The position numbers were made by a program, and so were the translations under genes. The notes beneath the pieces are model-generated. The model was not told where the DNA came from, made no database searches, and saw nothing but the letters and a program-made list of their open reading frames with translations. Below are positions 614-60,840 of a stretch of 64,000 bases of DNA, piece by piece. This DNA is from Tubulanus polymorphus (Eukaryota > Animalia > Nemertea): positions 5,382,275-5,446,274 of the forward strand of contig NC_134032.1 of the NCBI RefSeq assembly GCF_964204645.1. Reading direction: 5' to 3'. Each line of letters opens with the position of its first letter. The first letter of the stretch is position 1.

Positions 614-3600
614 ATGAAAGCAGTTTCAATTATAAAACTTCGCAGGGCAGTTCACAGAATAAATTTGGTGTCTTGACCAGAATTGTCAAATTCATGAAGG
701 TACTAAGCCTATATTGGGCTATAATGAGGTTGCTAGATATTGAATAATATATTATTTGTCTACCTATGCATATTTTGTAACTAAAATCAATTGCAAACTT
801 GTTACTTGTGGCATGTTCTGTGATTGTGGTGAGTTTCAAGGTCATTGGTTTCTGTATATCAGTGTTGTCAAAACGTGTTGATAACTAGTAACTTTTACCA
901 CCCAGACAATGCTCAGTTACCAGCCGGCAAAAAAAATACAGATACCCCTGATATACCGCGCACATCGGTGCAGAACGATTTTGGCGGTATATAGATTATG
1001 GGGGTATTTCGGGGTTGTTGTACTATGTATTTGTATTGTGGTCTACATTGAGAAAATCTGGCTGAAGACAGGGGTGGCGGGATATCTGGGGTTGACTGTA
1101 TTTAAAGAGGCTCCCAGGTTATTGAAGTTTTTTCTTTATTCCTTGATTGAAACTAGTGCTTTTCTTTTTTGTCGTCACCTGGAAACCTATTTAGACAATT
1201 TTTAGAAGTAATTTAGTAAGTTACAATATTCAATATTTCAATATTCAAATGTTTTATCTTAAAAACCAAAGTTTTTCATGAATTTTGATAGTTTTATAAT
1301 GTTCCAAAAGCAGGGTAATTGTTTCATCTTCAATGAATAAAAGAGGTAAGGGTCCTCAACACACGCATACCTGTGAATTGGATAAATACTTTTCAAGTTA
1401 TCTTCCAAGTACTCGCATTCTATATCCCATGAAATAGGTCAAGAGGAAACCTGATATGTTGGCGTCTCTAATGCATGAGACTGACCGTGAGAAACCTATC
1501 TCTAAAAATTAGCTTGTTGTGTTCTAGTTATTCTAGAGTGCGAAATAAAGTGAGCTCTCCATTTATGAGGCTGTCCATGGGATCACCATTTTTCATTTCA
1601 AATATCAATTTCAAGTTGTTAATGTTGTTAGATCAATAAACTAGGGGTCCATGGACACCTTGCCCACTTGGTAAGTGCTTTGAAATGCTAGAAAATCTAA
1701 CAGTTTCAATATTCAACACCCCTGGTGAATATATACCGCAACCAAAGGCATTGAAACCTACCACAGTCATAGAACATGTCATGAGCTACAGTTTGGCAAA
1801 CTGATTGTAGTAGCAAAATATGCCTAGGTGCCAATGGGTACATAATAAGCAAACACTAAGTTATTCTGCTATTCAATTGCCCCCTGGTACATATACAAAA
1901 ACCATAACCCTGAAACTCACCACACTTATAGACAGGTCATCAGCTACAATTTTGCAATTGATTGTGGTAACAAAATATGCCTAGGTACCAACATAATATG
2001 GAAATACTAATTTATTCCACTATTCAACACCCCCTGGTGACTATATACATATACCAATGACATTGATACTTACCACTCACTATCATAGAACATGTCATGA
2101 GCTACAACTTAGCAAACGATTGTGGTAACAAAATTTTGTTGAATACTTTTTCAATGCTGTTGTATTGCATCCAGTGTCCAAAATTAATAGATTCGTTCAG
2201 AATAATATTCATTAAAAAAATCTTCCAATTTTAGACCCTTTACCCCTTGTTTGTAATTGCGAACTACAAAACCAGGACTGTGGCGATAGAGACCGAATGG
2301 CTTGATAAATATTTAATATTCACCAAAAAATCTAAATTAACAGGTGCAGCTCTGTATGATAATAATTATTATACAGAGCTGCACCTGTTTTTTTAAATTC
2401 ATTTGTATTTAACCGAGGCTATTTTACGTATAAACAGTACACAGAGCTGCCAACCATTCTGAATTTTCCATAACTTTACTGTAATATCGTGTGAAAATAT
2501 GGCGTTCAGTTTTACAGGGCTGCCAATGTCTCCGATTTCGGCGGAGTTTGCTACGGTAAAACCAGTAGAACTCCGGTGCTACGGGAGTGGTGAAAAAACT
2601 ACGCTCGAGCGTCCGTCTCATTCCGGTACTCCGCCGAAGAGTCAATCGAATACGCCCATAATCAATTTCACTCCGGTGTTCCGTTAGAATGCCAATCGAA
2701 TACGCTCAAATTTATTTCACTCCGGTGTTCCGTTAGAATGCCAATCGAATACGCTCACATCAATTTTGTCATTGTTAAATCCTATCCACAGAACGGTAGT
2801 CTTTGGTTTGTGCGCATGCGCAGTTATCAATAAGCGATCATGTAATGTGATAGTCGGAGGTTGGATTAATGTTTTACCTGTAAACATGGCGGCATCGTTG
2901 TCTGATTCGGCAAACGAATCAAATTCCGATGATGATGATGAAAGAGAATCGGAAGAAGGTGAAGTAACTGCGAGGAAGAGAAAATCCAAACAAGGGACTA
3001 GAAACGAACAACTGAATAAAAAAACCCGTGTCGCCAATCAAAAATTCAGAGCAGAATATACGTCCAAATATCCGTGCATTGTTCCATCTCAAATATCAAA
3101 TAGTTATGCACTGTGTACTGTCTGCAACCTTGATTTTCTTGTTACACACGGTGGGTTGACAGATGTCAGGAAACATTGTGAAGAAAGCAAAAGTCACGAA
3201 GCTAAGGCAAAAGGTTTAAAATCACTCACTATTTCACATCAAATACTCCAACAGCAGACGAATTGGTAACCCTAAGGGCGGAGGTGATGTTTATTAATTT
3301 TTTGGTCGAACACAACATAGCTTTTGCAGTATCAGATCATGCTACACGACTCTTTAAAAAGATGTTCAAAAAAGATTGTGCAAACTTCTCATGCGGGAGA
3401 ACAAGGTCTACCGCAATCATGCGAGTCTTGGCTAACGAGGTGAAAGCACAAAACGTGGAGCAAATGGGACAGAGCCCATTTATTATTGGGACGGAGGGAT
3501 CCACATTTAACAATGATACTTTCTACCCGATAGTGGTTAGATACATAGATGCAAATGGCAATATCCGCACGGAACTTTTACACAACCAATGCAAAATGAA

Positions 3601-9600: not shown

Positions 9601-12600
9601 CATGTAGTGATGTAAGACAACACCGATCTCTTAGCTCTTTAAAAAGTAATCAGTTCCAAGTTCGATTAATTCTACCACACAAATACAAAACCACCAAGCC
9701 AACTTTCAGCACAACCATGTCAGCAAGCCCATTTTTAGAATTCCTTTCTTGTTCAAGTTTTCGAGGCGAATAGAAGACGCTTTAATCAATTATCTTGATC
9801 TTTCTGATGTATTTGTATCCCCCAGAGCCCATCAGCATAAGAAAAGTTGGGTCAATTGGACCTTTTTAGTGCCCAAAAATGTCAATTTTGGCCCAAATTT
9901 CGAGTCCTTTAGCTTCCTACTGTTTTGCCATTTTTCATTGAAATTTGTGATAGCTATTCTACGGAAAGGAATCTTTATACCTTTTTACCTGAGACATGTA
10001 TTTTTGATGAGCCAATCATCACGCAATTGTGGAATGGTCATGCAAAGACATTTAAAAATGTTTTAACACGTTTGCTGCCGCTGACGAGATAAATCGTCAT
10101 GGTGGGTGCACCGCAGTTTGCCATGACGAGTTTTATCATCATAGATTCAATGTCATTTTATAGTGTTATGAATGACCTGGCAGAGGCGAGAAGTCTGGCA
10201 GTATGGAGGGACTAAGATATTGTTTATGGGGGTAACTCAAGTCTGGTGCACACTTGAAATTTTTTCAAAAAAATCTTCAGAAAGCAATGAATTTTAGCTT
10301 CTTTTCTGGCCAATATTTTGAGAGAATATAATGACTAAAATGATTCTATATCATTTTTACAATAAAACTTCTATTCTTTTAGATTTTTTTGGTTTACCTT
10401 TGTCGGCGATATGAAGTTGGCATTGAGCCAATTCATGTAAAATCGCGGTACGTTTTTTAATGTGAGCATTTGTTTCATTGGTTCTCAGCTTAATCGACGT
10501 ATAATCAATGCGATTGAAGACATGGGGAACCTTCGTCGATGACATGGTCAACATTGTTAAATTCTACAAAAAACTTGTTTTGGCGGGAAAATTCTTAGCT
10601 CTCGCGTTTAAAATTGCAATGACCTCGATTGGGGGCGTTTTCTCTACGAGCAAATGTGATTGGCTGATATACGGGGAATTCGGGCGCTACTAAAATAATT
10701 ATGGGAAAGCTATAGAATGGCGTACGTTTCATGGACTAGGTGCCGTATACGTGCGAAACTCAAATGCTCATTACTGGTGAGAATGTAATTATCATCTGCC
10801 ATAGGTAATGTTTCATTTTAATACCCGGTGATTGATTTGATTGACATTGAAGTGTAAGCGAACATTCAATTACACAAGGTTTCCACGTGCGCGCGGAAAT
10901 CATTAGATTAGACTGTTAAACACACGCGCGTGCAGTATACACTACTATAGTGATACTGTAATGCTGCTTCCTGGCGCGTTTGCACCGGTATTTCAGCTTC
11001 CACGGCCATACATTCAGCCACCCTCTGATATGTGACATCATATGAATTTTATTTGAATATTTTTTCATATTATGAAAAATATTTCTTTGAAAATATAAAA
11101 AAGTTACCATGCCGCGCCTACCTGTACCCTACGAAATTTTGGATGTGGACCGTAAACAAATGTATATGTGCGGTCTTATTTGACTACAAAGTAATCCTTT
11201 ATGAAAGATAAAATACAATATTTAAACTTGAAGAACTTTGAAGTCACGAATTAAAAAGATTTTTCAAGCAATGCCCTTACCCCAAACAACCTCTAGCTTT
11301 CAAGGTAAACCACACTTTGTCCATGGGCAATTTATTTTTCTATTCCTCTTGTTCAATCATAAGACTAGCTATAGGCCCTAAGGGTACAGCTAGCAGTTGG
11401 CCATAAGGTTCAGTCATTGAACAGCTTAAATACACTCGTGTTGAATCATGGATGTGAAGCTTGTACCCCATTGACTGCATGATCATTAACCTATGCCATG
11501 GGTTCTTGGCGATTGCGCCGAGAGCAGACTATTCAGTGGCCATGGAAAGTATACTTTCTGAAGTTTTACCCTGATAGTATGGATTAAACATGCATTGCAT
11601 AAACACAGTTATTTCCATTCACTTTTCAAATTGAAGCTGTATTACCAGTCAATACTGAAACCCATTATGGAAAGTTTCTTTCTGGTGTTTTCATTATTCA
11701 ATAAGGCAAACCACAGTTAGTCGTGATTACCCTTACAGTTGTACATCGTTGATATGAATCTTGTGTAGGCGAAATGGCCGGAATTGTTGTATTTAATGGG
11801 TTCTTGTGTCCAAATCTTGATTGATAAAGATATCTTAGCTGGTACATGATGGAAAACACCAGAATAAACTAGTTTTTCAGCATTAGTAAAATCGTACTAA
11901 CACAAATTGACTTAAAGTCTGTGGTCCTCCCAATCAGTAATAGGAAAAGTAGGCTTTCATACCAGAGTACGAGAGTACGAGACACCACTCATCACCACAA
12001 GTAATTTTTTTATCTGATAAATGGAGAATGAACAACAGCCAGAAAACAATAATGTTAATAAAAATCAATATTATTGTCCATATTGTAAAAAATACATAGA
12101 TAAATCTAATAAATCTAAACATGAAAAATCTTCAAATCATATAAAAAATGTTATAGATTTTGAAACTCCAGAAAATTCCAATGAAAGAAAAGAACGATTA
12201 GATGATATGAATGTGGATGAAATAAAATGTGAAGTTTGTAATGAATTTATAGTAAAAAGGAATTATAATAGACATCTCGAATCACAAAAACACCACCAAA
12301 ATTTGAGTAATAATGTTTTAGGAAAAGATTATTTTGATGATAAACCTCAAAAAGTAAAAAAACCAACTTCAAAAACTAAATCCATTTCAAATAAACTTAC
12401 ATTGAAAATGTTAGAAATGATATTGATTCACTAGAAATAAAAGATACAATTGAAATTTTAGAAACATTACATAGTAAAATTGGTCCTGCAGCTATTATAT
12501 TTAGATTTTTTAAAGGTACAACAATAGAAGATTATAGTTAATCTAATGAAATAATAGAAAAAATACTTGATGTTGAATATCCAAAAATTAGTATCGCTGG

Positions 12601-15600
12601 GATAGTAAGTTTTATAAAGTCAGAAGAAAAAATGGATTATAATATTCAAACACTCTGAAGAAATAATTTCAAAAACGCAAATAAAAGAGAAGTTAGAAAA
12701 AATATTTAATGAATTTAAACGTCATATTGAAGAAAGATATTTTGAGGGTTCTGGCTTAACATTGAATGAAATTGTATATTTAGATTTAAATGTTTATAAT
12801 ACAAAAAGAAATAAAACATCAAAAAGTAATAAAATGTTTAAAAATGATTCAAACTTTACAACAGAAAAGGATATTAAAGCATCATCTTATATTAAATTAC
12901 CATTTACAACAAAAGCAGTAATAAATATTCAAAATGAAGATAATAAATGTTTTCTATGGTCAATTTTTAGTTGCTTACACCCAACAGAAGATATTACGCA
13001 TAGTTTTAGAATAACAAATTACCGGAAATATGAAACATTATATAAAATTGATCAATATCCAGAAACTATAAAAATGATACCCAAAAAAGAAAAAATTAAT
13101 AATTTAAAAATAAATGTATTTGAATTAATGCAATTACCAAAGACAAAAGGTGAAAATATTAAAGATTATACATTGGAAGCTTTATATTTAACAGAATATT
13201 ATGATGATGAAAATGCTATAGATTTGTTATATTACTAAAAGATGAAAATGAACATTATATGTGGTTAAAACAAATTGATTTATTCTTTAGAACAGAAAGT
13301 GATCCCATAATAAAATGTATCTATGTAGAAAATGTTGATCTAAATTTATGACTGAGAATACATTATCAAAACATAAAGAATTATGTGATAATAAAGATTT
13401 TTGTAAATTAATAATGCCAACAGAAAAATATTATCAATTGAAATTTACTAATCATAAATTTAAGAATATTGTTCCATTTGTAATTTATGGGGATTTTGAA
13501 TCGTTGAATAAAGAATTAACTGATCAAGATAGAAAAGAAATATACAATAAAAAGCAATTATTAAAATCAATGGATAAAGGAAATGAATTAAATGAAGACA
13601 CAATACAAGATCCACCAACTATAAACACAATTAAAAAAGTTCATCAAAGAGCTGCTGCTTATGGAATTTATATAAAATCAAATTATCCTGAATTATATGA
13701 AAGTCAATATATTTCTTTTAGAGGTGAAGATGTAGTTAATAATTTTTGTAACAAAATAATTGAATTAGAAAGTGATTTTGCAGAATTATTAAACAAAAAT
13801 AAAAGAATAGTTATGACAAAAGAAGATGAAGTTGATTTTAATTATGCAACCCATTGTTATTATTGTGAAAAACGTTTTTATTCATTTGATAAAAAAGTTA
13901 GAGATCATGATCATTTAAATTCAAAATATCGTGGAGCTGCTCATAAAGATCGTAATTTACAAGCTAAAAAAGTAAATTTCGTTTCAATATTATTTCATAA
14001 TTTATCAGGCTATGATACCCATCTATTTATAAAACAATTATCGGGAAAATTGGGCGCAATTAATCAAGAAATAGAAGAATATAATGCTATGAATGGTGTA
14101 AATGTAAGAAAATATGATTTTAAACTATTAGCTAAAACATCTGAAAATTATATTTCATTTCAATTTGGTTGCATTAGATTTTTAGATTCTTATAGATTTC
14201 TAGCAAGTTCATTAGATAATTTAGCAAAAAATTTAGTTGATAATGATTTTGTCATAACTCGATATTATTATCCAAATGAACAAGATTTTAAATTATTGAG
14301 ATATAAAGGCGCAATACCTTACTGATTTTATAAAACGCATGATGATTTCAAAGAAATAAAATTAATTAAAGAACAATTTTATGATCAATTAAAAAATGAG
14401 TACGTGAAAGATGAAGTTTTTGAAAGAACGATTAATATATGGAATCATTTTAGAATAAAAAACCATGGTAAATTAGTAGATTTGTATCTAAAATCTGATG
14501 TTATGATATTAGCCGATATATTTGAAAAATTTAGAGAAGTCAATTTGAATCATTTTAATGTTGATCCCTGCTATTGCTACTCTAGTCCAGGTTTAACCTG
14601 GCAATGTGGATTAAAATTTACAGATATAAAATGGATTTGTTAACAAATATAGATATGGTTTTATTATTTGAAAAATCAATTAGAGGTGTAATTAGTGGTG
14701 TTATGGGAGATAGATATTTTAAAGCAAATGATGAATATAAATTATTGTATATTGACGCCAATAATTTATATGGCTGGGCAATGATGCAACCTCAACCATA
14801 TAAAAATTTTGTATTAACAGAAGTTGAAAATGGTGATAAAACTGATTGGGAAAGCGCAATTGCGAGTTTAAAAGATGAAGCACCAATTGGTTATTTCTTT
14901 GTAGTTGATTTAGAATATCCTGAAAATATGAAGTTTAAAACAAGAAACTTACCTTATTGCCCAGAACATTTAACTGTAGATGATAGTTATTTAAGTGAAT
15001 ACCAGAAGAAAATAAAACCGAAAGATCATGTTTTTACAGAAAAATTAATACTTACTCAAAATAATAAATACAATTATATCGTTCATTATAGAATGTTAAA
15101 ATGTTATCTAAAACAAGGAATGAAATTAAAGAAAGTACATAGATATATTGAATTTAATCAATCGAAGTGGTTAGAAAAATATATAGATTTTAATACTCAA
15201 CAGAGAACCATATCTAAAACAGATTTTGAAAAAGATTTCTTCAAATTAATGAAAAACAGTTTTTATGGTAAAACATGTGAAAATATTAGAAATAGAAATG
15301 ATATTGAATTAGTAAATAATTCTGAACGATTACGACATTTACAATCAAGTCCTAGACATTTAGGAAATAAAAGATTTGAAGATTATTTAACAGCAGTTAA
15401 ATTAAAAAGAACGTCAATGAAATTTAATAAACCTATATTCATTGGTTCAACTGTTTTAGAAGTATCAAAATTATTAATGTATGATTTGTATTATAATGTT
15501 TTACAACCACTTTTTGGGGAAAAGCATATTGAAATATTATATTTTGATTCTGTAACATCTGACACCCCAATATTATTAAATGTAATGATAAAATATTGAT

Positions 15601-18600
15601 TAAGAAGAATTTCAGAAATAATTCCAAAACAAAATGAACTTTTTATTTCATATGGTGAAAAAGAATTAATACAAATAAATGGCTTAATGGATGTTTGGAC
15701 AAGAAATGGATGGAAAAAATTAAAGAATATTATTAGACATAAAACAAATAAGAAAATCTATAGAGTTAGAACTAAATTAGGGTTTGTAGATGTTACAAAA
15801 GATCATAGTTTAATTAAACGAAATGGCGATGAAATAAAACCAACTGATATAAAAATTGGAGATGAATTATTACATAAAAGATTTTTCCAAAGAATGAATC
15901 ATATGTCATTCGATGAAATTATTGATAATATTTATAATATAGAACCCGAAACATTAGAAGAAAAAGAATATTTTATCAAAGGATTTTTCATGGGTGATGG
16001 TTCAGCAGGTGTGTATAATTATGTTTGGGGTAATAAATATTGTTGGTATTTATGCAATCAAGACTTGAAATTATTAGAAAGAATTAAGAAATTCTGTGAA
16101 GAAGTTTATTCACATAAAACATTTAAAATCATAGATGTTATGAAATCATCAGCAGTTTATAGAATACTTGTAAATAATCCTAAAGATTTTGCTATAAAAT
16201 ATAATGATGAATTCTATATTCATGCAACAGTGAAAAGTAATACTTCAACAAAAGAAAAGATAGTTCCAGATTATGTATTAAATGCAAAAAATAATTTAAG
16301 AAAGTGGTTCTTCATTGGATTCTATGCCGCAGATAGCACTAAAAAATTTACAAAGGATAAAAAGATAACCTTTGCACAGAAAGGAAAAGTTGCTATATCA
16401 GGATTTAATATATTATGCAGTTCATTAGGATTTAATATGAATATAGAATTAATTAAATCTAAACCAAATTGTTTTAATTTAAGGCATGTAGAAAAAGAAT
16501 TAACAGAAGAAGTTAAAGATTTATTTGAAATATATAACCCATCAGATTATGTTTATGATTTATCAACTGAAGATGGTAAGTTACATACTAAAAATCAAGA
16601 CAAATGACATAACAAAAGACTTAAAAACATTAAAACATCATTTTGATTTTAGCAATTATCCCAAAGATCATGAACTATTTTGCAATGATAATAAAAAGAT
16701 TCCTGGTAAATTTAAAGATGAATTAGGGGGTGATGAAATGATTGAATCTGTTGGGATAAGAAGTAAAATGTATAGTTACAGAACAAAAGATCATGAAGCT
16801 AAAAAGTTAAAAGGAATAACAAAACATGTGGTTGATAAACATATAGAATTTCAAGATTATATAAAGTGTTTATATAACTCAATTGTAATGAAACACAAAA
16901 TGATTTGTTTAAGATCAGAAGATCACGAGATGTACATTAATAAAGTTGAAAAAACTAGTTTGAATCCATTTGATGATAAAAGGCATATTTTAGATGATGG
17001 TATAAAAACATTACCTTATGGTTATTAAATTATAAAATCAATATCATCAAACTCGAAATCACTATTGGTTTCTTCTTTTTCATTTAATTGTTATTTTTTC
17101 TAATAAACTATTTTTTCTTTCATTGAATTCTGCTTCAAATTTATTAGAAATTTTATCTATATGTACTTTACGAAATTGATGATTCTCCCAGTCTTCTATA
17201 TTTCGACAAGGCTCGCAGAAATGATCTTTTATCCTTGTCATAGAATAAGAACGGTCTTTTCCAATTAATTTCAGGTTCAACTTCAACAGAATTACTATTA
17301 CTTTCGTTACTATCAACATTAGCCGTTGCGCCATTAATTTTGCACTTCTCTGAATGTTTTTTAACATTATTTCTTGCGAATAATTTATTACATTTTGGGC
17401 AGTTTAGTTTAGGGGGTTTATAATTTTCATCATGTTTTTTTCATATGTCGAGCCATATTACTTTTTCTTAGAAGTTCACCACAATTTTCGCATGGTATCT
17501 TCTCATCCATTTATTAAGGAAACATTTTATTAAAATTAATTTTTAGTGATGAGCGGTAATTTTTTTATGTTATAAATAATGGTAGAATTAAAAGAATACA
17601 GAATATTTGTTCATTCTAGAAAACTTACAAATTATAAATCACATAATTTACTAATACAATTAGATAGAGAATTTAAGAATTGTGTTGATTTAAAATTAGT
17701 TAATATAAGTTTATGTAATTCTTTTTACAATATATCGGATAAAAGTTTTGATCATAGATTGTTTATGATTCATTATAGAAATATGGATAAATGGTATCAT
17801 CTATTTCTAAGACCAGGATTATATAATTAAGAAACATTATCTCAAGAAATTAATAAAAGAGCTCGGTTAAAAGTGTGTGAATCGGTTGGGTTTAACATTA
17901 AATTTAATAAAATTGATAGTACTAATAAAATAAAAATAAAGTTAACTAATGAACAATATAAATTCATAGTAAGAAAACCATTAGCTAAAATGCTAGGATT
18001 TAATCCAAATAAAGTTTATTCAAATGTTGATACTACACCAAATATAATACCTTTTACGCACTCTATATTTATTGTAATTTAATTGATCCTACAAAAACAT
18101 TCGAAGCAACTAAAGATACAATTTGTAATTCTGGTTTATTAGATATTTTACCATTAAAAAATGTCAAACAATTTGGAACTCAAATAAGTTATAATTTAAC
18201 GGAATGTGATTTTAAACCTTGCATTCCACATTTCAATAATTTCAAATCAGAAATAAGAAATCATAATGGTTAATTAATTGATTTGAATAACTTTCCTGTG
18301 ATATATGAATTAGTTATAAGATGTAAAGAGTAATTTTTTCACTATATAAATGAATATAACTGTTTAACCGAGTATATGTTTTGGATTTGATTTTAAACGT
18401 GAGAAAGAAATGAAATTTAACATTAATGATGTAATAACACATATTAAAAATATTGAATTTTCTAATGAAACAACATTTGAGTATGAAACAACAATAAATA
18501 AAGAAACTTTAAATGTAGAAAAGATTACTAATTTAATTATCTTTAAGATTTTATGAATTAGATGAAGATTTTATTATAGATGATATTAAAAAAATAATAA

Positions 18601-21600
18601 TTGAAATATATACAAATGAAACTAGTAATGAAATAAATGTTGAAATAATCATAAATAAGATAACTAAATATTTTGATGATAGTAATTTTTTTGATTAATA
18701 AATGAGTGATAATAACTGGATAATAACTGGATTATATAATGGCGCCTTACTATCAGTTGGCGCCTTACTATCAGTATTCAAAATGGGAAGTGTTAATGTT
18801 GATAGATTTGATATCAATGATATTTTAAAATTAACATTAGCAGTTACTTTATCTAATTTAACTATTGATTATTTGGAAAAACGAAAATATATTCCTCTTT
18901 TATAAATACATAATTATTTTGCTAAATAAATGGCTTCTGCAGTTATAACTATTATAGGATCGGCAATTGTTAACGCTTTAGCATTTACAGGTGGTGGTTA
19001 TTTATTTAAGCATATTGATAAAAATGGATCATTAACAGAACAAAAAAGGCATAACTTAGCATTAGAGAAATACAATAAAGCTGCAGAAGAATATAGAGAA
19101 AGAGGCAAAACTATATGGATTATATTAACAAGGAATTATATGATCAGAAGATTTCAATCAGTTGATGATGCAATGAGTTTATATAACGCAGTAACCAATA
19201 AAGGAAAATTAAATCTACATAAACCTACAATATCAGATTATTATACCCCGAGTAAAGAACAACAGAAATATGAAATAATATGGATTTTAGGTGGAACAGT
19301 TATTGTTATATTTGTAGCATATAAATTTACTAATTAGTAATTTTTTTTCTAAATAAATGGATGATAAAGTTGATAATATTGATATTATTCCTCATGATAT
19401 GAATAAAACTAAATTAAAAATATATTTAGAAAAACAAATATTAGAATTTGAAAATGATTTAAAAGTTAAAAAGAAAAAATATTTAAAATCTAAAATTATA
19501 TATTATTTGATTATAAGTGGTTCGGTTACAATTAGTTCTGTAATAACATTTCTAGCAATATTCAGTCCATTAACACCTTTAGCTATATCAATTGGCGTAT
19601 TAGGATTATCATCAAGTGTTTTAACTGGTATAAGTTCAAAATTAAATATAAAAAGTAATAAAGAAAAAATTAAAACTAATATAAAAGAAATTAATAAATT
19701 CAAAAATACACTAGATAATATAATAAGTTTAAATGGCCATATAACAGTTGAAGAACAAGATAAATTATTAAAAGAATTAATAAATTATTAATTTTTTTAT
19801 TATATAAATGGTAGATAGTTTTCCAAAAGCTTTCCAATTTAATAAATCAATTAAATATAATATTCCAGCAATAGATTTTAATAAAGATATTTCGTATAGA
19901 AATGAAGTTTTAAATTCATTAATTGATTTATATATTTATGTTACTGAAAGTAATAATTTTCAGGTAAAGATGGAAAATATATTTCATGTTTATACAATTA
20001 ATTTTAAAAATTTAAATGAGGCAAGACAATGGTTATTAAAATCTCATATGAAGTATTGGCAGAACCAATTAAATTTTGCTGTTTTTTGTGCAACAACAGG
20101 ATGTGGAATAAGTTGGAATGATCATTTAAACAAACCAAGTTTACCATTGATGTTATCACTCTTTAGATTTCATACTTATTTCCAAATAAAATTAATATTA
20201 GATGAATTAGAATGTCCTTTACCAGGTTCAAAATATTTTAAAGAATTGAATAATAATATTAATTTTTCTAAGTTTTATAAAATATGTAATGAATTTAATA
20301 TTAATTCAAATAAAGATTTTAGAGCAAAAATTGGAACAATGGGCGGATTAGGAATATTATATACTAAAGAATTTGGAAAAATAATGACAAATTCAGATAT
20401 AAGAACACTAAATTGGAATGAATTACCAAAATATTATAATAATATACAACAACAAAACACTAATGGTTGGGTTAATTTCATTTTAGAAAATAGTGAAGGT
20501 TTTACTAAAGCTGGAATACAAAGAATAAATCAATCTATTAGAACTTATTTGATATGTATTTTAGGTGCGCAAGTTGAAACAAGATCCCCAATAATTGGAA
20601 ATGATAACACTTCATTCGATGCGCAGAAACAATTTAAAGTATTATTTGAAGATTGAATTCATAATGATTAAAATAGATCTATTCCAGAAAACATTGTAAG
20701 ATATCAAAATTATCTAGATAAATCACATATTAGATTAAATTATTGTATAGGCCCTAATCTATTAATTATTTCTAATGATTTAGTATTAAAGATGGGAAAT
20801 ATGATTGGTTATAATAATCTAATTAAAACTGCAACAATAAATAATTCATTTGGATTAAATGATATAAATAAAAAGATTATTACTGCTCCAAAATTAATGG
20901 AAGGTGAAAAAAATAAAAAACATATTCAATCAACAGAAACTAAAACTAAGAATATTTAATTAAATAATGATTCTAAACCGGATTATAATACATCAGAAAA
21001 TATTAAAACTGATAATATTCAACATGAAATAATTAAAACTGATAATGATAATAAATTCCATGAAAATACTAAATTAGCTTTAACTTGTATAGGAATTGTT
21101 ATAGGAGGAATATTATATTTTAAATTTTAATTTTTTTATTATATAAATGGATGTAGAAGGTGGAGAAGATATTGGAATGGATAATTTGATGAACCTGGCA
21201 TAACTGATGAACAACAACCTGATTTTAGTGAAACAAGTTTTACTGACGGTAATGAGCCAGGACATAAAAATAATTTAAATATACCTGATTATATTAAAAA
21301 CGCAGAATCAAAATTAAATCCTGAAAATTTAGACCCATATTTAGTAAAACAAGATTTACATAATTTAAACAAAATACCTAAATTAGAACATTTAATTGAA
21401 AATTCTAAACTTACTATAAATGATGAAGACGTTGGACCTTTAGCAGATCAATTAAAAATTTTAGATAATGGTAAATGGTATTATCATTTGAAAGGTGATT
21501 ATTATATTGATATCACTTATCAACTTTGAGTAATTTAGATCCAGATAGAATTAAAAGAATTATTGATAATAATGTAGTAACTGATGTTATAAAACAAGAA

Positions 21601-24600
21601 TTAACTGATAATGACTTGATCGTCAAGTAATTGATGAAATGGAATATAGGCAAAAAGAATTACGTTTAGAAAAAGAAATTAATAATTTAAAAGATAATTT
21701 AGAATTACAAAAAGAAGAAATTAAATTATTATTAAAATCATATGATTATAATATTAATAGATTAAAAGTTATTTTTAAAGATTTGTTGATAAAACCAAAT
21801 TCTGAAATATCATAGAATAAAATTATTATTTAAATTAGAAGGAATAACAATTCTTTCAATTCTAACAGCTAACTATGTTATTTACAACAATTGGTTTAGC
21901 AATATCAAATTCTTTGAAATCTTCTCCTACTCCCAATAAACCGGATAAACCCCCGAATGATAATAATTCTATACAAGATAAAGTTAAAGATGGTTTAAAG
22001 AAATTAGCAAAATATTTATGGGAACTATCTAAAAAATCTGCCGCAGCTTCTTTACCAGGAATTATTGCATCAATTGTTGGTTTTATATTGAAATCTGCAG
22101 GAAACATTATTAACTTTGCTGCTGAACATGTTATTTTATTTTTAATTACAGTTGTAAGTGCTATTATTTTTTTAATCCTGAAATAACAAAAGTAGAAATA
22201 ACTATCGAAGGAATAGCAAATAAAATATTTTGTCGAGGAATGAGAATGATTGATCAATGGCCAGAAATTAGAAAACATTTTATGAATGAAAAAGTAAAAT
22301 CATCTGAAAATTGTAATACTAATCAAATTGATTATTATACCGGTAATAAATATGCATTTTGGTTAGATTTTAGAACAACAGAGGATAATTCATTACATGG
22401 TTCTGGAAAAAAATTACAAAACACTTAAGATGGAATACAATTATTCATGAAAAAGAAAAAAGGAAGCTAAAATTATTATATCTGACGCACAATTAAATAT
22501 TGTAAATTCACAATTAGATAGTATTCAATATTAGAAATATAAAGTTAAAATTAAGGATATATAAATGGGTGGTAAAAAAACTCCTAATACTAAAGAACAA
22601 TATTTAAGAAATTTATATTACAACCCTGAGAGTTCGGTTGCTTATTCTTCTAACAAAAATATATGGCGTCAAGTAAAACAAGATAAATTAGATAAGATAA
22701 TCCCACAAAATTTAGTTGAATATAAAGATATAAATGAATTTATGTTAGAACAACCAACATACACAACACATAAAAAATTGTTAGAAAATATAAAACTCGT
22801 AAAACTATGGTAAGTTATGTAGATCAACTGTGGCAAGGAGATTTAATTGATATGAAAAATGTTAAGAAAGATAATGATGATTATTGGTGGATATTGAATA
22901 TAATTGATATTTTTAGTCGTTATGTATGGAGTTTCCCACTTTATAGATAGGATGCTGTACAAACATGAAATGTTTTAAGAAAATTTCTTTTGGATGATAA
23001 ACTAAAACCAGAAAAAAATACAATTTGATGATGGCAAAGAATTTGATAATTCACTTGTTCATGAACTCTTAGACAATCATAATATTAAATATTTTTCAAC
23101 AAAATCGGATAAAAAGCAGCAGTTGTTGAACGAGTTAATAGAACATTAAGAACAAGAATGTGGAAATATTTTACAGCAAATAATGCTTTTAAATGGATTG
23201 ATGTTTTACCAAATTTGATAGAAGGATATAATAATTCTTATCATTCTTCTATGGGAATGAAACCTACTGATGCTAGAAAACCTGAAAATGCTGAAATTGT
23301 TTGGAATAATTTATATGGAGCATTTCTTGTAGAGGATTTTGGTGAACCTAAATTTAAAGTTGGTCAAAATGTTAGAATTTCTAAGTATAAAAAGATATTT
23401 GACAAGGGATACGATCGAAATTTTACTAGAGAAATATATAAAATAAAAAAGGTAATAACAACAAAACCATATGTCTATAAATTAGAAGATTTAGATGATG
23501 AAGTTGATGGCTACTTTTACGAAGAAGAATTAAGTTTAACTACTGAAAATCTAGAACAAGAATATAAAATTGAAAAAGTATTAAAAACAAAAACTATTAA
23601 AAGAAAAAATATTCTTTAGTAAAATGGGTTGGATGGCCAGATAAATTCAATGAATGGATATTATCAAGTAAAATTAAAAATATATAAATGAATAAGGAAT
23701 TATTTATATTTGAGCCTCATAATATGTTAATTTCTGGCGTAACAAATTGTGGAAAAACTTATTTTATATTAAATTTATTAGAAACTGTTTATAAAAACTA
23801 TTTTGATAATATAGTATTATTTTGTCCAACATATGAATTTAATCAAACTTATGACAGAAATATTACTAGAAATAATAAATTTATTATATTAGATCCTCAA
23901 ACAGTAAAAGAAAATTTAGATAATTGTATTAAAATAGCAATAGATATTTATAAAGGATCAAATACATTATTTATTATAGATGATTGCGCAAATTTACATG
24001 ATTCAAAAATTGGAGAGAGTGAGTTATGTTATTTAGCTTTTTCTGGTAGACATTTTGGGATAACAACATGGGTTTTAAATCAAAAATATAATTCAATTGT
24101 TAAAGACTTTAGAGAAAATATTAGATTTCTAGTTTAAATAAATGGATTGGATATTTATCATTTCAATTAGGTGGATTTATGACATTATTTATCAACTGGA
24201 GTTATAACATTTTCAAATATTGAAAGTAAAAATATTTCTATAATAAATGAACAAGGTGGAAGAAGTGAAGAAAAAACCGAGATCACAGAAACAAATTGAA
24301 TGGTCTCGGCAATTAGGAATTAAATCACAAGAATATAAAAAAGCTGTAAAAGAAAAAATAAGTAATAAAAATGTTAATAAAAATAGTGAAAATATTGTTA
24401 TTTCTACTCCTTCTAATGATAGAATATTTGATAAATGTCTATATTTTACGGTTGGATTTGTAATTGTATTCATTTTGATTGGGTGTAATTGGTATAAGAA
24501 ATAGAAAAAAATTCATGATATTTATAATTCTGAAACAACTGCTATCAAAAATGAAAATACTTCTGAAATTCCAAAATTGACAATAAAAAAATGGATTAAT

Positions 24601-27600
24601 ATTTTAGAAAAAAAGCAAAAAAATAATAATTTTTTTTTAGTTAATTGAATATCTCACTACTTTTGTCTATCTATGCGGAGCAATTAAATTGTCCGGATAA
24701 GTCATTTCGGATTCTAGATATTAATTACTTTTATTAATTTATTTTGTTTTTTGATTTGAAGTTTTTACTTGAATATTGTATTACATTCGTTTCTTATTAT
24801 TAGTTTTTTCTTAAATTGAAAGATGGCAGCACTGGGTGTGATGCTAAAATAAATATTTGAATTTGAATTTGTTAATCAATTAACATGGATAATTGATTAC
24901 TAATTTGATTAAAAATTATATCATAATTAAGTTAAAAATCCATAATTCATTTACCAGTTTTCATTCCTATATTCTTTTCATTCATAATAATTTATAATTT
25001 CAAATTTCACATATTTCTTTAGTAAACACCAACAACATTTTTTAGCTAAGTATATAAGGCAATTCATTCGACCACTGGAGTGCCGCCGGGCTTGGCTTGC
25101 AGGGGCATTTCAAAAATGCCCCTTTGTCCACCCTCCGTGGTTCTCCTTCAGTTTCGACTTTCGATCCTCCTTTCGGGGGTAAGGGGTTGATAGGAAATGC
25201 ATAAGGCGCCTTTAATATAATGTGTTCCCTGTCAAATATTGAAGGAGAATTGGTTAGGTGTGGGTCACAGGGGTGTAATTAGAAATGCTTGGGGATAGGT
25301 ATCTCGTGGAGCCTCTCAATAACGGGATGCTTATCCCCTAAAAACTCTGCGAGTCAAGTCGGGTGGTTTTGCTAAAATTTACCTTGAAAACTGAATTCCT
25401 TTTAATCACGAGAGAGAATGTATCCTGTGTGTGTTGTATGTATTGCGTGCTTATTATATAACTGCTAGCTATCCAATATAACAACAACGTTAAATTGCAA
25501 CACCTGTTTGATCAAACATTCAAATGAAGCACTCTCTTATAATAACATGTAACAGATGTTTGGCTGGCATGATTATAGTTGTTCGTAAAACGATTAAGGT
25601 CATTTTGGTTTCTAGATATTCATTATTTTTTTTATTTAATCAACAATTTCTAAATTATGATGACCGTCTTCATTTTTCCCATGATAGATTATGTTAAATC
25701 CTTCTAAATCTTTTAATTCCTCTGTACTCAATGAAACCCATTTATCAGGTAAAAATACTTTAAATTCTCGCGATGTACTAACATTACAGTAGCTTAAATT
25801 CGCTGATACTTTCTCTGCATATTTAGTTTTTATCTTTTCTAATTTCAATATTTTATGTTCAATTTCTTTTGTAACATCAACTAACTTTTTTATTTCAAAT
25901 TGTTTTTTTGCTGGTTTTATTCTGTTATTTATTGTTGCTAAGAATGCTTTTCTATCTCCCATTTTAAGGAAAAAAAATGTGGTGATGAGTGGTGTCTCGT
26001 ACTGCTGTACTCTGGTATCAAAGCCTACTTTTCCAATTACTCCAATCAACATCGTCATAGAACATTCGCTGGCAGATGTACTACATTAACCACTTAATAC
26101 CTTACCACAGTATAATCTACCAATGGTTCAAGGCCCATGGGCCTCTTGTATTTTCTGTTGTATTATAATCTTTTAATTCTGAATTATTATTTAATTCAAT
26201 ATTTTTAGTTTAGTTTCAGTTAATTGTATATGTTTTTAATTTTTTTCACCTTGCTTTAATTTTGGAGTAGTAATGATTTTTTTATTTATATCATTAAAAC
26301 CAAACAAATTATTTATTCATTGTTGCAATTTTAATTAGATTATAATTTTTTGATTTTAATACTAAATCATTGGATATGAAAAATGAATTAGGGCCAATAA
26401 TTTAATCTTATATGAGAATTATCTAAATACTTTTCATATCTTATAATATTTTCTGGAATTTATCTATTTTTATCATTATGAATTGAATCTTCACATAATG
26501 CTTTAAATTGTTTTTGTGCATCAAATGATGTATTTAAATTTCCAATTATCGGTGATCTCCAATTATCGGTACAAATCAAATAAATTCCAATAGATTGATT
26601 TATTTGCTGTATACCTGATTTTGTAAAACTCACTATTTTTTTAAATAAAATAAACCCAACCATTATTATTATCAATTTTTAATGATAAGCTCCAACTCTA
26701 TGCATATAATCAATTCTCTTTATTTTAAACTGTTCACCAACCATATGCTTTAAATAATAATATGATACCAATTAACCATATGCTTTAAAATCAGAATTAT
26801 TTGGATTTATATTAAATTCATGTCATATTTTATGAAACTTTGATGAATCTAAAAAAATTGACCAATGCTATGTAACTAAAATACTAGAACCTTGCATCAT
26901 ATGAAAGGTCATAATATTGATTGATAGTTTTTGAACTATCTGGCTTCAAATATGTGTTTTCAAAAAGCACAAAAGTGGCTGAAAATTATTGAATTTCTAG
27001 GGTAGTCGCAGTGTAAATAACTTGTACTTAAAAGGGTTCAATCTCTGAGATGACTCAAATTATACTTTCAATATGACACTAGTGCACCATCTGCACTAAG
27101 ATGAAGGTAGCACACTTGTTCAATGTCAGAAGTCGGGAAACAAAGATTTTGTTCGACGTAGATTACTCGTATACAGATTTTTAAGACATCATTACTGATT
27201 TTTAAAACGTCTTCTGGTTTGAAAATTGAGAACTACTGGAAAATTTTTGTAAAGATAAAATCTAGGTTGGCAACTCAGAACTAATGGTGTGGCAAATTAG
27301 TAACGATTAAAACAAAATGACGATTTATGAATGTTGAATTAACCACAGAAACTAAACAGGAAATAGAGAAGCGTTTCTTCTCGGAAGAATTATGACGAAT
27401 TACATGCCGCCTGTTAAAGCTAGGTCGACTGTACAACCAAATGGTTTGATTTGATCTGTTATTTTAGATTCGTCACCAGCGAGCTGAAACACACCCTCTC
27501 ACTTTAGAGGAAATACTTGATGAAACAAAACAGTTAGATGTCGGAATGAGGATGAGACATTGGCTCTCAACTGAGGTACCTTTCTGATCAGAACAAGGGG

Positions 27601-30600
27601 TTTCAAAACTTCAGGGAAGAGATCGATATCGTACTAGAAATTTCAAATTTCTTTATCCCACAGGCTTTAGGCAACAATCCGAAGATCACAGTCGTTGATG
27701 GCAACAAGTATTTATTCAAGCCAAAATTCACGATACGGGATCGACGCAGTTTACTGAAACTTCTCGATAAATATGACCAGCGCGGACTGGGCGGAATTCT
27801 GATGGACGATATTTCTGAATCGTTACCACGATGTGACCGTATTCTGAAGGTATATACCCTGCAGTGCAACTTGTATTTTTGAAATATCCATAGTCAGTTT
27901 TCTGAAATTTTTATGGTCAACCTTGGTTAATCCATATCACTGGGAATCAAGCTCTTTAGAGTGTCAGTGTCAATGTGCTCTTTCAGATAAGATTTCCGCA
28001 AATAGTGCCCTTTCTTTTCCCTTCTCTGCGTGTTTAGTGCCCTTTTCCAAACCACGGGTGCCCCTTCAAAAGGCAAAATTTGCTAACCAGGCCTGTGCCT
28101 TTGCATATAGAAATCGAATTAAACGTCAGTGGACATGGTAATAAGTGGATGGTCAAATAAATAATAATTTTGAAGGGCACTTTCAATTTTAGACATATTG
28201 GGTAATACAGCTAGTACGGTTGGATACACCACTGGATATGATGTTTGAAATTGATATATGTAGTGATCTGGATAGAAACATTGCGTGTATGTATTGATAA
28301 ATGATGATATGTAAGGCCATCCCAAAATAATTGTCTGTTTGCCGTAACACCGACTCAAGTTTTTCAGGATGAGTTGGTAGGTAGGTAGGATTTTTTTGCT
28401 AAATTTTTTTGGGCAAAAAAAAACAAATTTATCACCTTTTGAGCCCACTTGGGACTTAAGTCCCACAGGGCTATTGCGTTCACTTTTCGTTCGTCCATAG
28501 AAAGAATCCAGTTATTTTGGGAAGTTTTGAAGACGCAGCTATGGATGGTCTTCATGTTTGGTTTATACATGTATCCACCCTAGACACTTCTGCAGCTTTA
28601 AAGACTGGCCCTGTCACAATCAAGATGACCGACTGGGAGCCATTGTTGTTCGCCGAAATCAACACTTTTTACGCATTTTTGAAGTTTTCGAGGAAAAATA
28701 AGAAGACGCTTCCATTATCTTGATCTTTCGTATGTATATGTATCCGGCAAAGGCCCATTAGCAGAAGAAAAGTTGGGTCGATTGGACTCAAAATGGCTGC
28801 ACTCTGGCCTTTGTTGTGCCCAAAAATGTTGATTTTGGCCCAAATTCTATGTCCAGTAGCTTCCTACTGGTTTACCAGTTTTCATTGAAATTAGTGATGG
28901 GTATTCTATGGAAAGAGACCTTCAATGCATGTGACAGGTATTTTTGATCAGCCAATTATCATGCAATTGGCTGCCATCTTAGTGTCATCAGTACCACGGC
29001 TGCCAATTTCACTCCAGTATTCCGGTAGAATGCCAATCGAATACCCTCATAATCAATTTCGAATCGAATTCTGATGATGATGATGACGATGACGATGACA
29101 ATCGATGGATGACGATGATGATGATTGATGATGATGATGGTGAACTGGAAGAAGGTGAAGTAACTGCAACGAAGAGAAAATCCAAATAAAGGACTAGTTA
29201 CAAACAACAGAAGAAAAAAACCTGTGTCGCTAATCATAAACGCAAAGCAGAATATATCTCCAAGTATCCGTGCATTGTTCCACCTCAAATATCAAATAGT
29301 TATGCACTGTGTACTGTCTGTAACCTTGATTTTCTTGGTACACACGGTGGGCTGACAGATGTCAGGAAACGTTGTAAAGAAAGCAAAAGTCACAAAGCTA
29401 AGTCAATAGCGTCTAAAATCACTTGCTATTTCACATCAAATACTCCAACAGCAGACAAATTGGTCACCCTAAGGGCGGAGGTGATGTTTATTGATTTTTT
29501 GGTCGAACACAGCATAGCTTTTGCAGTATCAGATCATGCTACACTGTCAGCATGATACACGCGATCGTGGTCGACACAGTATCCGGACAAGATCAAGAAT
29601 AATACGAACAAGACTGTGCAGAAAACTGATTATCGCTGCTTCGCAGCAATATTTCTTTATTGATTCTCGACACAAAAAAATGGCACGTTGTACGTCCATG
29701 CATATATGATATTCACATACATTTTTACGCACATTGTACGTCCATAGATATATGATATTTACATACATGTTTACTCAACATATAATGTTTTAAAAAAATA
29801 ATTTGTGTTTACTGTCACGCTCTCGTGAACCCGACTGTCTTGCCCAGCCTCTAATGGCCCTGCGGGTCCAATTAATCTTCTAATCATGTTTGACCAGGGA
29901 GTCCACGTAAAATTCGTAGAAGTCACTGCTTTTCTTCATTTTATCCGCTTTAATTTTGTGCAGTGTCTGTACATGTTGACCAGAAAGAACGGCCATTTAA
30001 GAAAGAGTTCACATAGTTAGCCCAAAATCAACGAAGCCATTAATCTTTAGATAAAGGATATTCTGTAAATAAAAAACGATTTGTTAGAAAATATTGGAAC
30101 TAAGATTAATTATGCATATGCTCGGGATTATCTTGACAAAAAAAACGTTTGTATCAATATGCAGATGAATTTTAAACAATTCTAATTCGCATTAAATACA
30201 CCATACATTATTTGTCTTGTTTTTACTACTGCTTGACGCTAAGGTTATGATGAGACGGTTTTGTACGCCATCTCATTTACGGCGATAGAATGATACTACG
30301 AGGGAATGTCGACTGTCGCTTCTGCGAATAGATACGGCATATTGTTCATGTCGAGCTGGTGCACTGTAGGACAAAATTCATTAAAATTAGACTATTCATT
30401 AAAAAGCCGAATTTAATAAACCCGACCAGACAGAAAGAAACTGTTTAGTTTAAAATGTTATAAACTCTATCAGTTCATTTCTAAACTGCCGGGTCTGATA
30501 TAGTAAAATATCATTGATCATGGTTTAATAAAAGTAATGTACAAGGTAGATATGTGGCCGGCTGTGTCAACTATTAAGCTCAGCAATGAGTGTAGAGACA

Positions 30601-43400: not shown

Positions 43401-45000
43401 CTGCGCGTTTATCGGAGATTAGAGATGAAACCGATAAAGATGATACCATGCAGATATTGAAAGAAATTATTTTGAGAGGGTGGCCAGATGAGAGAAGTTC
43501 AGTGCCTACTGAAGTTACTCCATATTTCTCATTTAGAGATGAGTTGTCAATTCAGAACGGTATCATTTTCGCGGGGAACGCGCTGTGATTCCCAAGTCGA
43601 TGTATAACATTTAAAAGACAAAATTCACAGTTCACATCTTGGCATCGAATCCTGTTTACGTCGTGCCAGAGAATCGGTCTACTGGCCAGGTATGAACGCC
43701 CAGATGCGCGAATATATGTTGTCGTGTAGTTTATGTCGTGAGCATGACCAGGCCCAGTCCAAAGAGCCTATGCTGATCGAGACTCCCCCAGCTAATCGAC
43801 CGTGGGAGAAGATCGGTGTCGACTTATTCAATTTGAAAGGGGAAGATTATCTAATAACAGCAGATTATTTCAGCAATTTTTGGGAGGTAGATCGGTTGGT
43901 CAAGTCCACTAAATCGACTCCTGTCATAGCAAAACTTAAAGCTCATTTCGCGCGATATGGCATTCCGGACATTATCATTTCCGATAATGGACCTCAGTTT
44001 GCCTCGAAAGAATTCCGTAAGTTTATGATTGATTGGGACATTCGGCATCGTCCTATAAACCCGTATGACAGTAAGTCTAATGGACAGGCTGCGTCGGCGG
44101 TCAAAACCGCGAAAAGACTTCTTAAAAAAGCATATGAGGCGAAACGAGACCCCTATCTTGCGATACTCGATTTTAGAAACACGCCCACTCAGGGCTTAAA
44201 TGTCAGTCCGGTCCAAAGGTTTATGAACAGAAGAACCAAGACTATGATGCCAACGACGGCTAATCTATTACGGCCGAAAATTAGTTTATCAGACGGGTCC
44301 GAGAAAAAACGTAAGCAGGCCGAATATTTCAACCAATCGGCCAAGAACCTTAAACCGTTAGACGAAGGTGATATTGTTCGCATGAAACCATTTCCGGGGC
44401 ATGGAACAAACTTAAAGGCGACGGTCACCGAACGCGTCGGAAATCGCTCTTATCTTGTCGAAACTGGCGGCAATAAAACGTACAGGCGCGCAAGACATCA
44501 TCTCAGAAAGACCAACGAAACGACCGTTGAACCGGCTGTAGATTCTGATAATACAGTTGAAAACCGGCCTATATCGGAACCGGTAGCTAACGAGACATCC
44601 GTTTCAGATAGTCAAAATTTAAGTCGACCTGAAAGGCAACGTAGACCCCCTACCTATTTAACTGATTACGTGTGTAATTAACTCTGAAGAGAAACAGATA
44701 TTAATCGCAATCTTGTAATGTTGTACTGAATCACATATAATATTATGTATCATTTTAATTAGTTTTAGTAATTAGTTAGCTATATACATGTATGCATCTT
44801 TTGAAAGTAGTTTTAGGAAAACAAGTTTTTTTCTTTTTATAGGAAAAGGGATGTTACAATATGTATATCTAATTGTATTTTGTACCGCCAGATGGCGCTT
44901 GAGAATTACTTTATAAATGGTGGTTGCTTAGAATAAACGTGTTCGAATTAATCTCTCTCGTTTTGACTGATTTAATTGATATAGAGGACGACACGAAACA
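40440..45000 (+). mobile_element. Ty3/Gypsy LTR retrotransposon, Mag-like, full length but inactivated
   Basis: TG...CA LTRs at 40440-40581 and 44852-45000, TSD CACAT, PBS TGGTGGCAGCGGT (complementary to a tRNA-Leu 3' end), PPT AGGAAAAGGGA at 44841-44851. Confidence 0.96.
40695..44681 (+). pseudogene. Gypsy gag-pol (Gag with two Zn knuckles, protease, RT, RNase H, integrase), frameshifted
   Basis: CNNCGLSNHFASVC, protease IHSGA (expected DSGA), DLKSGYWH, IHDDI, CDSS...YAQIEKE...DHKP, PWEKIGVDLF, SDNGPQF, SNGQAASAVK. Frame breaks near 41065, 42290 and 43580. Confidence 0.93.
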
Positions 45001-60576: not shown

Positions 60577-60840
60577 TTACCCTATTACTATTGCGTAAGC
60601 AGTAGAGAGAAAATAAAGAAAAGCTTGATCATACCAGATAGAAGAATTAGATGGATTATTATTTGAATCAATACCACCGTGTGGGTGCTGTACGGCACCA
60701 TCAGATAAAGTCTGTGATTCATTTATATCAGTTAATTTCTTTTTCTTAGCTTTTTTTAATTCTGATGATCTTTTACCTAATTCTCTTGCCCATTTAATTT
60801 GTTTCTCGGATCTAGCCTTTTTCTTAACTCCATCACTCAT
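60577..60840 (-). CDS. Small basic TM protein, homolog of 24247-24504
   Basis: RSEKQIKWARELG vs [13 protein letters not shown]. Confidence 0.75.
   Translation of the reverse strand: MSDGVKKKARSEKQIKWARELGKRSSELKKAKKKKLTDINESQTLSDGAVQHPHGGIDSNNNPSNSSIWYDQAFLYFLSTAYAIVIG

Follow-up and report, generated by a model that had tools for sequence, protein, structure and literature searches.

A decayed LAGLIDADG intein in the catalytic motif of a Polinton DNA polymerase and its kinship with giant-virus polymerase inteins

The locus analysed here raises the question of how an intein came to lie in the catalytic motif of a polymerase encoded by a Polinton/Maverick element, in what is likely an animal genome. 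The window, meaning the whole stretch of 64,000 nucleotides under study (contig NC_134032.1, positions 5,382,275 to 5,446,274 of the forward strand), carries at 15549..16578, on the forward strand, an insert that interrupts motif C of a protein-primed DNA polymerase of family B (pPolB). This insert is virtually certain to be a true intein. The account that probably holds overall is that it represents a dead LAGLIDADG intein in motif C of an integrated Polinton, that its intact counterparts are predicted to splice, and that they have likely spread by cutting the polymerase genes of intein-free Polintons.

Intein in motif C of the window polymerase

The polymerase gene (12021..17028, forward strand) belongs to the endonuclease-VII-containing type of pPolB, as assigned through Pfam on its intact relatives. 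At 15540-15578 its extein runs to ...EILYFD and is followed, from 15549 onwards, by an intein with an initial Ser. The insert, pseudogenised in this copy, joins a Hint splicing domain to a LAGLIDADG homing endonuclease with two motifs, and consists of the following elements on the forward strand: block A with the nucleophile Ser1 (15549..15578); block B with the T-x-x-H motif, here T-K-D-H (15795..15806); LAGLIDADG helix 1 (15969..16001) and helix 2 (16305..16337), both with the catalytic Asp retained and the latter with a neighbouring position altered in the window copy; and a terminal segment (16548..16578) in which block F (16548-16574) is followed by a deletion and a frame change. The traits of class 1 inteins present in the window are thus the N-terminal Ser, the T-x-x-H of block B and an in-frame insertion at a conserved host site, and those of the endonuclease are the two LAGLIDADG helices with their acidic catalytic residues.

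Blocks A, B and F and the two helices had been recognised at 15549..16578 in an earlier note made from the letters alone, and this assignment is borne out by profile searches. For the open reading frame (ORF) 15600-16604, Pfam gave Intein_splicing with E 2e-7 and 31.4 bits, below the cut-off of 35.8, and LAGLIDADG_3 with E 1.3e-4 and 22.6 bits (cut-off 22.5); the NCBIfam model intein_Nterm matched with E 2e-4, below its cut-off. A profile of 339 positions, built from 66 well-delimited related inteins, scored 347 bits on residues 322-669 of the read-through translation, covering profile positions 1-329. The PDB sequence search with the same read-through returned a single weak match (E 0.02).

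The site of insertion was determined by alignment with the intein-free pPolB P0165. The N-extein aligns as far as the motif C Asp (72%, 313 aa), and the alignment of the C-extein restarts two residues past the site (78%, 148 aa). Because the alignments stop and restart there, the D-T-D-S motif is interrupted between its first D and the T, a position equivalent to the YGD/TDS site of RNA-primed family B polymerases (PolB), which is where the earlier note had placed it.

The window intein is a dead copy. Its frame is open to about 16578 except for one stop (15597-15599), which lies in a broken patch (15577..15602, forward strand) where most reads from other copies are unlike the window. Near 16578 a short deletion and a frame change have removed block G as well as T-D from motif C, and with them the terminal Asn and the +1 residue of class 1 inteins; the polymerase continues there in another frame, and the extein is likewise broken by stops and frameshifts. 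Since block G and the motif C T-D are lost, the window copy is unable to splice or to encode a polymerase.

Intact counterparts are present among database proteins. The search with the window intein gave 118 longer protein matches, five of them pPolBs (P0011-P0015) and 113 with PF00136, the domain of RNA-primed PolBs. P0011 is an intact pPolB of 1693 aa, the intein of which is 63% identical to the window intein, and intact ORFs joining pPolB and intein were found in P0011-P0015, P0170 and P0229. In Pfam the host proteins P0011, P0170, P0015 and P0135 match PF03175, and hence pPolB rather than the RNA-primed PolB family PF00136; the endonuclease VII domain is also present in these intein-bearing pPolBs. 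With the polymerase region of P0011 as query, the intein was seen in four of the best 120 of 3591 relatives (P0011, P0170, P0229 and the truncated P0183). A representative search yielded 1860 proteins at E 0.001, and the best 150 were mostly RNA-primed PolBs. In the intact pPolB inteins Ser stands right after the motif C Asp and the terminal Asn stands before T-D-S, as in the mimivirus intein; the Asn end was confirmed in P0011-P0015, P0130, P0135, P0170 and P0229.

AlphaFold was applied to the intein of P0011 instead of the window copy, with 48 sequences, and gave a model with a predicted local distance difference test (pLDDT) value of 93.4. The best PDB matches of the model are LAGLIDADG inteins, namely TliVMA (E 3.5e-18), PhoVMA, PI-PfuI and PI-SceI, and I-DmoI is also among the fold matches; the leading named viral matches are PolBs of a phycodnavirus, a pandoravirus, a marseillevirus and a megavirus. 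According to this model, the intein of P0011 has a Hint fold. In an intact copy class 1 splicing, with Ser1, T-x-x-H, the terminal Asn and a +1 Thr, would restore the catalytic motif. As the insert splits that motif, a replicating Polinton would need splicing; this would make the intein cheap enough to persist, and its inactivation would kill replication.

Origin of the Polinton intein

The inteins of pPolBs form a single clade in the FastTree phylogeny (12 of 221 rows, starred support 99), in a quick IQ-TREE tree (12 of 64 rows, starred 100) and in a careful tree (8 of 30 rows, starred 100/99). Three near-duplicate inteins were removed ahead of the 221-row tree, and two of the 12 clade members (P0003 and P0148) are intein-only ORFs, assigned as pPolB from their flanking residues. 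The clade nests among the RNA-primed PolB inteins of the YGD/TDS site, with a starred 100/99 for the nesting in the 30-row tree. Its likely sister group consists of inteins ending in G-x-P-L-I-V-K-N (the GFPL-type), an ending common to the Polinton inteins, with a starred 96 in the 64-row tree. This ending occurs in 15 of the 165 inteins from fetched loci, all in RNA-primed PolBs, and seven of these 15 lie on contigs of giant-virus metagenome-assembled genomes (GVMAG). The closest relatives identified did not include any archaeal intein. It is very probable that the pPolB intein derives from PolB inteins of the giant-virus type.

Several results weigh against parts of this account. In the careful 30-row tree the GFPL-type sister receives only 86/80 and the fork is open, and the FastTree phylogeny gives as sister four divergent rows instead (P0104, P0124, P0125 and P0128); the latter candidate was not adopted, being probably a long-branch artefact, since IQ-TREE placed these rows elsewhere. 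An intein-bearing pPolB locus was found neither in viral nor in metagenome or prokaryote contigs: the search of viral contigs with P0011 gave no relative (0 of 57 stretches), nor did that of metagenome contigs with P0170 (0 of 40), all of the 165 fetched-locus inteins are in RNA-primed PolBs, and the locus search with the window intein gave one weak locus. The candidate donor family differs between the trees; a giant-virus source is well supported by the sequences compared. The shifting sister group, together with a root that depends on two inteins of another PolB site, could also speak for a different origin, in which a third source, such as a protist polymerase or another virus, fed both groups, or in which the intein passed from Polinton to giant virus. 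This is very unlikely, given that the Polinton clade is one strongly nested branch against 209 other rows, nearly all from RNA-primed PolBs, and that the named or labelled relatives are the mimivirus PolB and GVMAG contigs.

The origin from nucleocytoplasmic large DNA viruses (NCLDV) proposed in the earlier note is therefore retained in its core, the clade being nested among giant-virus-type PolB inteins, and revised in its scope: the step from giant virus to Polinton appears to have happened once, long ago, with later spread across Polinton lineages, and does not seem special to the window element. In that single old transfer the intein would have passed from the YGD/TDS site in the RNA-primed PolB of a giant virus to the matching D/TDS site in the pPolB of a Polinton; co-infection of a cell would be the simplest setting for it. 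This first transfer would have required DNA of both, giant virus and Polinton, within the same cell.

Further related inteins were observed in the course of these searches. Many RNA-primed PolBs have a related intein at a second site, several of them contain two inteins, and some inserts are located three residues further along motif C; this set of second-site, double and shifted inteins comprises P0016, P0017, P0279-P0284 (including P0281), P0286, P0288, P0290, P0329, P0354 and P0396. P0348 is a non-polymerase host protein with two related inteins. The PolB inteins L162-L166 and the pPolB P0166 occur in prokaryote-labelled metagenome-assembled genomes, where contamination of the bins with viral or eukaryotic sequences is likely.

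Probable spread of the intein among Polintons

Separate trees of intein and extein, suggested in the earlier note, gave different pictures: the inteins form one clade, and their presence is scattered on the extein tree. In trees of the extein region upstream of the site, with 97 and 112 rows, intein presence needs 10 changes, eight of them forced by starred branches. The 97-row tree was obtained from 136 proteins after removal of 37 without a recognised site, most of them intein-free or truncated, and of two with a short N-extein; for the second tree 113 proteins were kept and 112 rows entered. Such scatter may alternatively have arisen if the intein was acquired by a single ancestral Polinton lineage and then passed down vertically, with many precise losses, and no longer homes, the copy number in this genome being due to Polinton expansion alone. 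The monophyly of the pPolB inteins, the adjacency of the window and P0011 in both the intein and the extein tree, and the persistence of many intein-free copies agree with such a history. The change counts are also blind to it, as they score gains and losses alike, and precise loss could explain part of the scatter, which counts against spread by homing; so do the shuffles of the intein label, which was unclustered in the 97-row tree (148 of 500) and clustered in the 112-row tree (7 of 500), a tree holding seven near-copies.

Vertical inheritance is nevertheless improbable, for three reasons. First, P0015 is a pPolB (PF03175, E 9e-32) with an extein that BLASTP does not match significantly to those of P0011 or P0160 (best E 0.02), and the P0015 intein is nested within the clade as sister to the window and P0011 (starred 98/91). 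A tree holding the other seven inteins together apart from P0015 was rejected in the approximately unbiased (AU) test with p-AU 0.029, a modest result for a group that was named only after inspection of the quick tree, and to that extent a weak point of the case. Judged by its sequence, the P0015 intein sits in a second pPolB family, so that at least one jump into such a family would have occurred. Secondly, both catalytic Asp residues of the endonuclease are kept clade-wide despite path lengths of up to about 1.6 changes per column.

The third reason lies in one cluster of alleles. Intein-bearing and intein-free alleles, another comparison proposed in the earlier note, exist side by side in two database clusters as well as in the reads under the species label. 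Homing with co-conversion leaves a converted flank around the inserted intein. In the cluster of P0170, which has 136 members on contigs as long as 1.02 Mb, the 15 members listed include seven intact intein-bearing and three close intein-free ORFs, 97.4-98.7% identical outside the intein. Twelve differences are fixed between the two groups; all fall in a tract of 51 residues, which extends from -7 to +44 relative to the site, and the remainder of the compared region (-900 to +150) has none. Two outgroup alleles carry the intein-free state at 10 of the 12. As the fixed differences cluster at the insertion point and the derived states belong to the alleles with the intein, a patch of foreign flank came in together with it, which speaks against vertical inheritance with loss. 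Two observations lessen the force of this: the tract was measured at the protein level, with no donor recovered for it (the best match outside the cluster reaches 70-72%), and the second pair, P0135 with and P0138 without the intein, shows no tract, with two differences in 572 residues upstream and none in 169 downstream (2 of 741). On balance, comparison of these sequences indicates that the intein has probably spread among Polintons by homing, a process described for inteins in PMC10710043. The endonuclease would cut empty alleles, and repair would copy the intein in, with co-conversion of the flanking codons.

The copies under the species label were assessed in two sequencing runs, the raw-read run X6 (12% of the run used) and the run X1 of another study. 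In X6 the unique flank has a depth of about 10. At 80% likeness the intein has a mean depth of about 216 (range 130-267 in 17 bins), and the extein about 489 upstream (6 bins) and 585 downstream (4 bins). This suggests some 20 intein-bearing copies among 50-60 polymerase copies, which are rough figures given the AT bias and the likeness thresholds. The intein is skipped exactly in 88 reads of X6, in four junction forms (42, 33, 10 and 3 reads) that join 15545-15552 to 16579-16581 with few letters between, so that motif C reads uninterrupted; two contigs of X1 also skip it at motif C. Other reads have additional letters at the C-terminal junction and a different sequence at the early stop, and the stop and junction lesions of the window are therefore not common to most copies. 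At 92% likeness the intein depth in X6 is close to the extein depth and skipping joints are absent among those listed; close copies thus appear mostly intein-bearing and empty copies more distant. The marine-metagenome run X5 contained a small share only and is not evidence of habitat. From runs X7 and X8 no sequence could be placed, and the runs listed included none of RNA; these two negatives say nothing on expression.

Nearly all close copies (at least 92%) appear to bear the intein, a pattern also given by simple expansion of one intein-bearing subfamily, and this similarity of depths is a further point for vertical inheritance in this genome. It is doubtful that homing takes place between chromosomal Polinton copies; because many empty copies coexist in this genome, it would at best be inefficient. 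Homing between replicating elements is favoured instead. A wider scenario is tentative at most: that Polintons bring the giant-virus intein into animal germlines and that its endonuclease homes there among chromosomal copies as a natural drive, selecting D-C-D-S or D-T-D-A escape alleles. If true, Polintons would form a functioning shuttle by which mobile elements pass between giant viruses and the nuclei of animals.

Variants of the target site were noted in intein-free proteins. The motif C reads D-C-D-S in 16 intein-free pPolBs (one of them C-G-S), for example P0172, P0173 and P0175 with 13 others, and all 16 belong to one well-supported lineage, which also holds most of the intein-bearing alleles. 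D-C-D-S is a candidate target-site escape allele, or may be merely a trait of the lineage. D-T-D-A is present in the intein-free alleles P0433, P0434, P0436, P0437, P0171, P0222 and P0163.

Genomic setting and comparison with known systems

The Polinton has a size of 14.1 kb (11936..26041), lies inside an intron of GTF2E2, the gene of TFIIE-beta, and differs from its flanks in base composition (24% GC compared with 37-38%). It is bounded by terminal inverted repeats of about 64-77 nt and by 6-bp target-site duplications at 11930..11935 and 26042..26047 (forward strand), which are identical. Upstream of the intron a GTF2E2 exon is located at 614..699 (forward strand), with a GT donor at 700; Pfam gave no match there, and its assignment to GTF2E2 is a putative one based on a motif. 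Downstream exons are found at 27468..27849 (forward strand, Pfam TFIIE_beta and TFA2_Winged_2), preceded by an AG acceptor at 27466-27467 in the same phase as the upstream donor. One downstream exon is identical in 37 of 63 residues to a TFIIE-beta in PDB (E 4e-21), all three matches being TFIIE-beta, presumably human. The junction of Polinton and GTF2E2 flanks was part of the first description of the locus and is upheld by the inverted ends, the duplications, and the order and phase of the exons.

A contig of a symbiont or virus misjoined to host DNA would place the intein outside the animal nuclear genome. No read or contig, and no long read, among those listed bridges the flank and the Polinton, and the animal identity is based on the similarity of GTF2E2 alone; these points weigh against integration as we read it. 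A misjoin is nonetheless hardly credible, as identical 6-bp duplications surround the inverted ends, GTF2E2 exons stand on both sides in order and in phase, the element is decayed, unlike a replicating virus, and read runs from two studies under one species label contain both flanks and the element. Integration into the chromosome is accordingly preferred, and the intein would have entered the likely animal germline as a passenger of an integrating Polinton, followed by growth to about 20 copies.

Of the Polinton hallmarks, the element has the inverted ends with the 6-bp duplication, the pPolB, an rve-type integrase (22565..23620, forward strand, frameshifted; Pfam rve E 3.4e-4, below the cut-off) and an A32-type packaging ATPase in a truncated gene (23688..24137, forward strand; Pox_A32 E 5.4e-12). 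For the major and minor capsid proteins and the protease no Pfam or PHROG match was obtained among the ORFs of the window; putative capsid-like remnants near 17579 and at 22200-22428 are suggested by motifs. The region 21147-22240 was considered as a major capsid gene and rejected, having no profile match. The ORFs 19808-20656, 18930-19337 and 19357-19791 have no convincing family match; an Atlas search gave no usable match for ORF 19808, and the matches of P0170 in it are all below 0.9 and serve as leads only.

The sequence TAAATG, the core of poxvirus late promoters, stands after a T-rich stretch at 11 gene starts of the Polinton (12021, 18350, 18702, 18930, 19357, 19808, 21147, 22565, 23688, 24142 and 24247), picked by eye and post hoc; overall it accounts for 43 of 559 ATGs. 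These starts may point to a helper of giant-virus or poxvirus type and fit a helper-dependent life. In the wider, tentative scenario given above, they would mark the helper-virus factory in which the exchange took place. Polinton-like viruses have been reported together with entomopoxviruses (PMC11296320).

Other mobile sequences were observed in the window. Just beyond the right inverted repeat, 26209-26848 is a partial inverted copy (about 85% identity) of the Polinton gene 19808-20944. A second AT-rich, Polinton-like piece is located at 60833-62347 (reverse strand), with an endonuclease VII match (PHROG E 2.7e-19) and a short match to 24134-24186. The pol region of a long terminal repeat (LTR) retrotransposon, with reverse transcriptase, RNase H and integrase, lies at 40650-44681 (forward strand), and a separate reverse transcriptase at 48976-51145 (reverse strand).

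The family described here gives direct molecular evidence of the exchange of a site-specific element between Polintons and giant viruses, which needs both DNAs in one cell and thereby touches the long-standing question of how animal Polintons replicate. A homing endonuclease has moved between polymerase families that share little beyond the catalytic motif. With intact ORFs and near-identical alleles with and without the intein available, homing, co-conversion and target-site escape become testable in existing genomes.

The closest known system is the PolB intein of mimivirus, residues 1053-1403 of R322 (Ogata et al. 2005, PMC549080). That intein (P0028) is 39% identical to the window intein over 91% and has the same boundaries. 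The likeness to it and to other giant-virus PolB inteins extends to the motif C site, the Ser...Asn/Thr chemistry, the length of about 340-350 aa and the two LAGLIDADG motifs. In contrast to these, the carrier here is the protein-primed PolB of an integrating Polinton, and its inteins group apart in a separate clade.

Gallot-Lavallee et al. 2023 (PMC10710043) described intein-bearing polymerases of endogenous giant viruses on scaffolds of the nuclear genomes of Klebsormidium, Tetrabaena and a labyrinthulomycete. In these cases, too, an endogenous virus has brought an intein into nuclear DNA as its cargo. They belong, as described there, to viral-like polymerases of algae and a protist, whereas the present intein is found in a multi-copy Polinton, in a likely animal genome, with intein-bearing and intein-free alleles together. 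Nuclease domains of the HNH and VSR types are inserted in Polinton pPolBs (Jeong et al. 2023, PMC10748475), and one sentence of Krupovic et al. 2024 (PMC11071308) suggests that pPolB nuclease inserts stem from intein invasions. Both share with our case a nuclease inside pPolB; the terms LAGLIDADG, Hint and homing have 0 occurrences in the main text of Jeong et al., and here a complete intein lies in the catalytic motif, besides the endonuclease VII domain.

Green et al. 2018 (PMC5784728) list nuclear inteins in fungi, amoebozoa, a choanoflagellate lineage and algae, and viral ones for giant viruses of four families; the section in question names neither an animal nor a Polinton. The nuclear inteins of Prp8 and VMA1 resemble the present one in being LAGLIDADG inteins in nuclear DNA, PI-SceI being one of the fold matches, and differ in residing in a host gene instead of a viral one. 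Passages of PMC12220804, PMC13768754, PMC5718144 and PMC3671162 contain general mentions of inteins only. The word "intein" is absent from the text and supplement of Starrett et al. 2021, and the supplement text of PMC8502044, PMC11131425, PMC10710043 and PMC11161782 contains no relevant terms. Among the papers listed, the literature search turned up no intein of the Hint type, either from a Polinton or from the nuclear genome of an animal; such an annotation could exist in figures, bioRxiv supplements, RepBase or subscription journals. The surveys consulted record inteins from fungi, protists, algae and giant viruses; none is named by them for an animal nuclear genome or for a protein-primed polymerase. 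The family described here supplies both, and represents a known intein group in a polymerase family and a host setting that are new for it and apparently undescribed.

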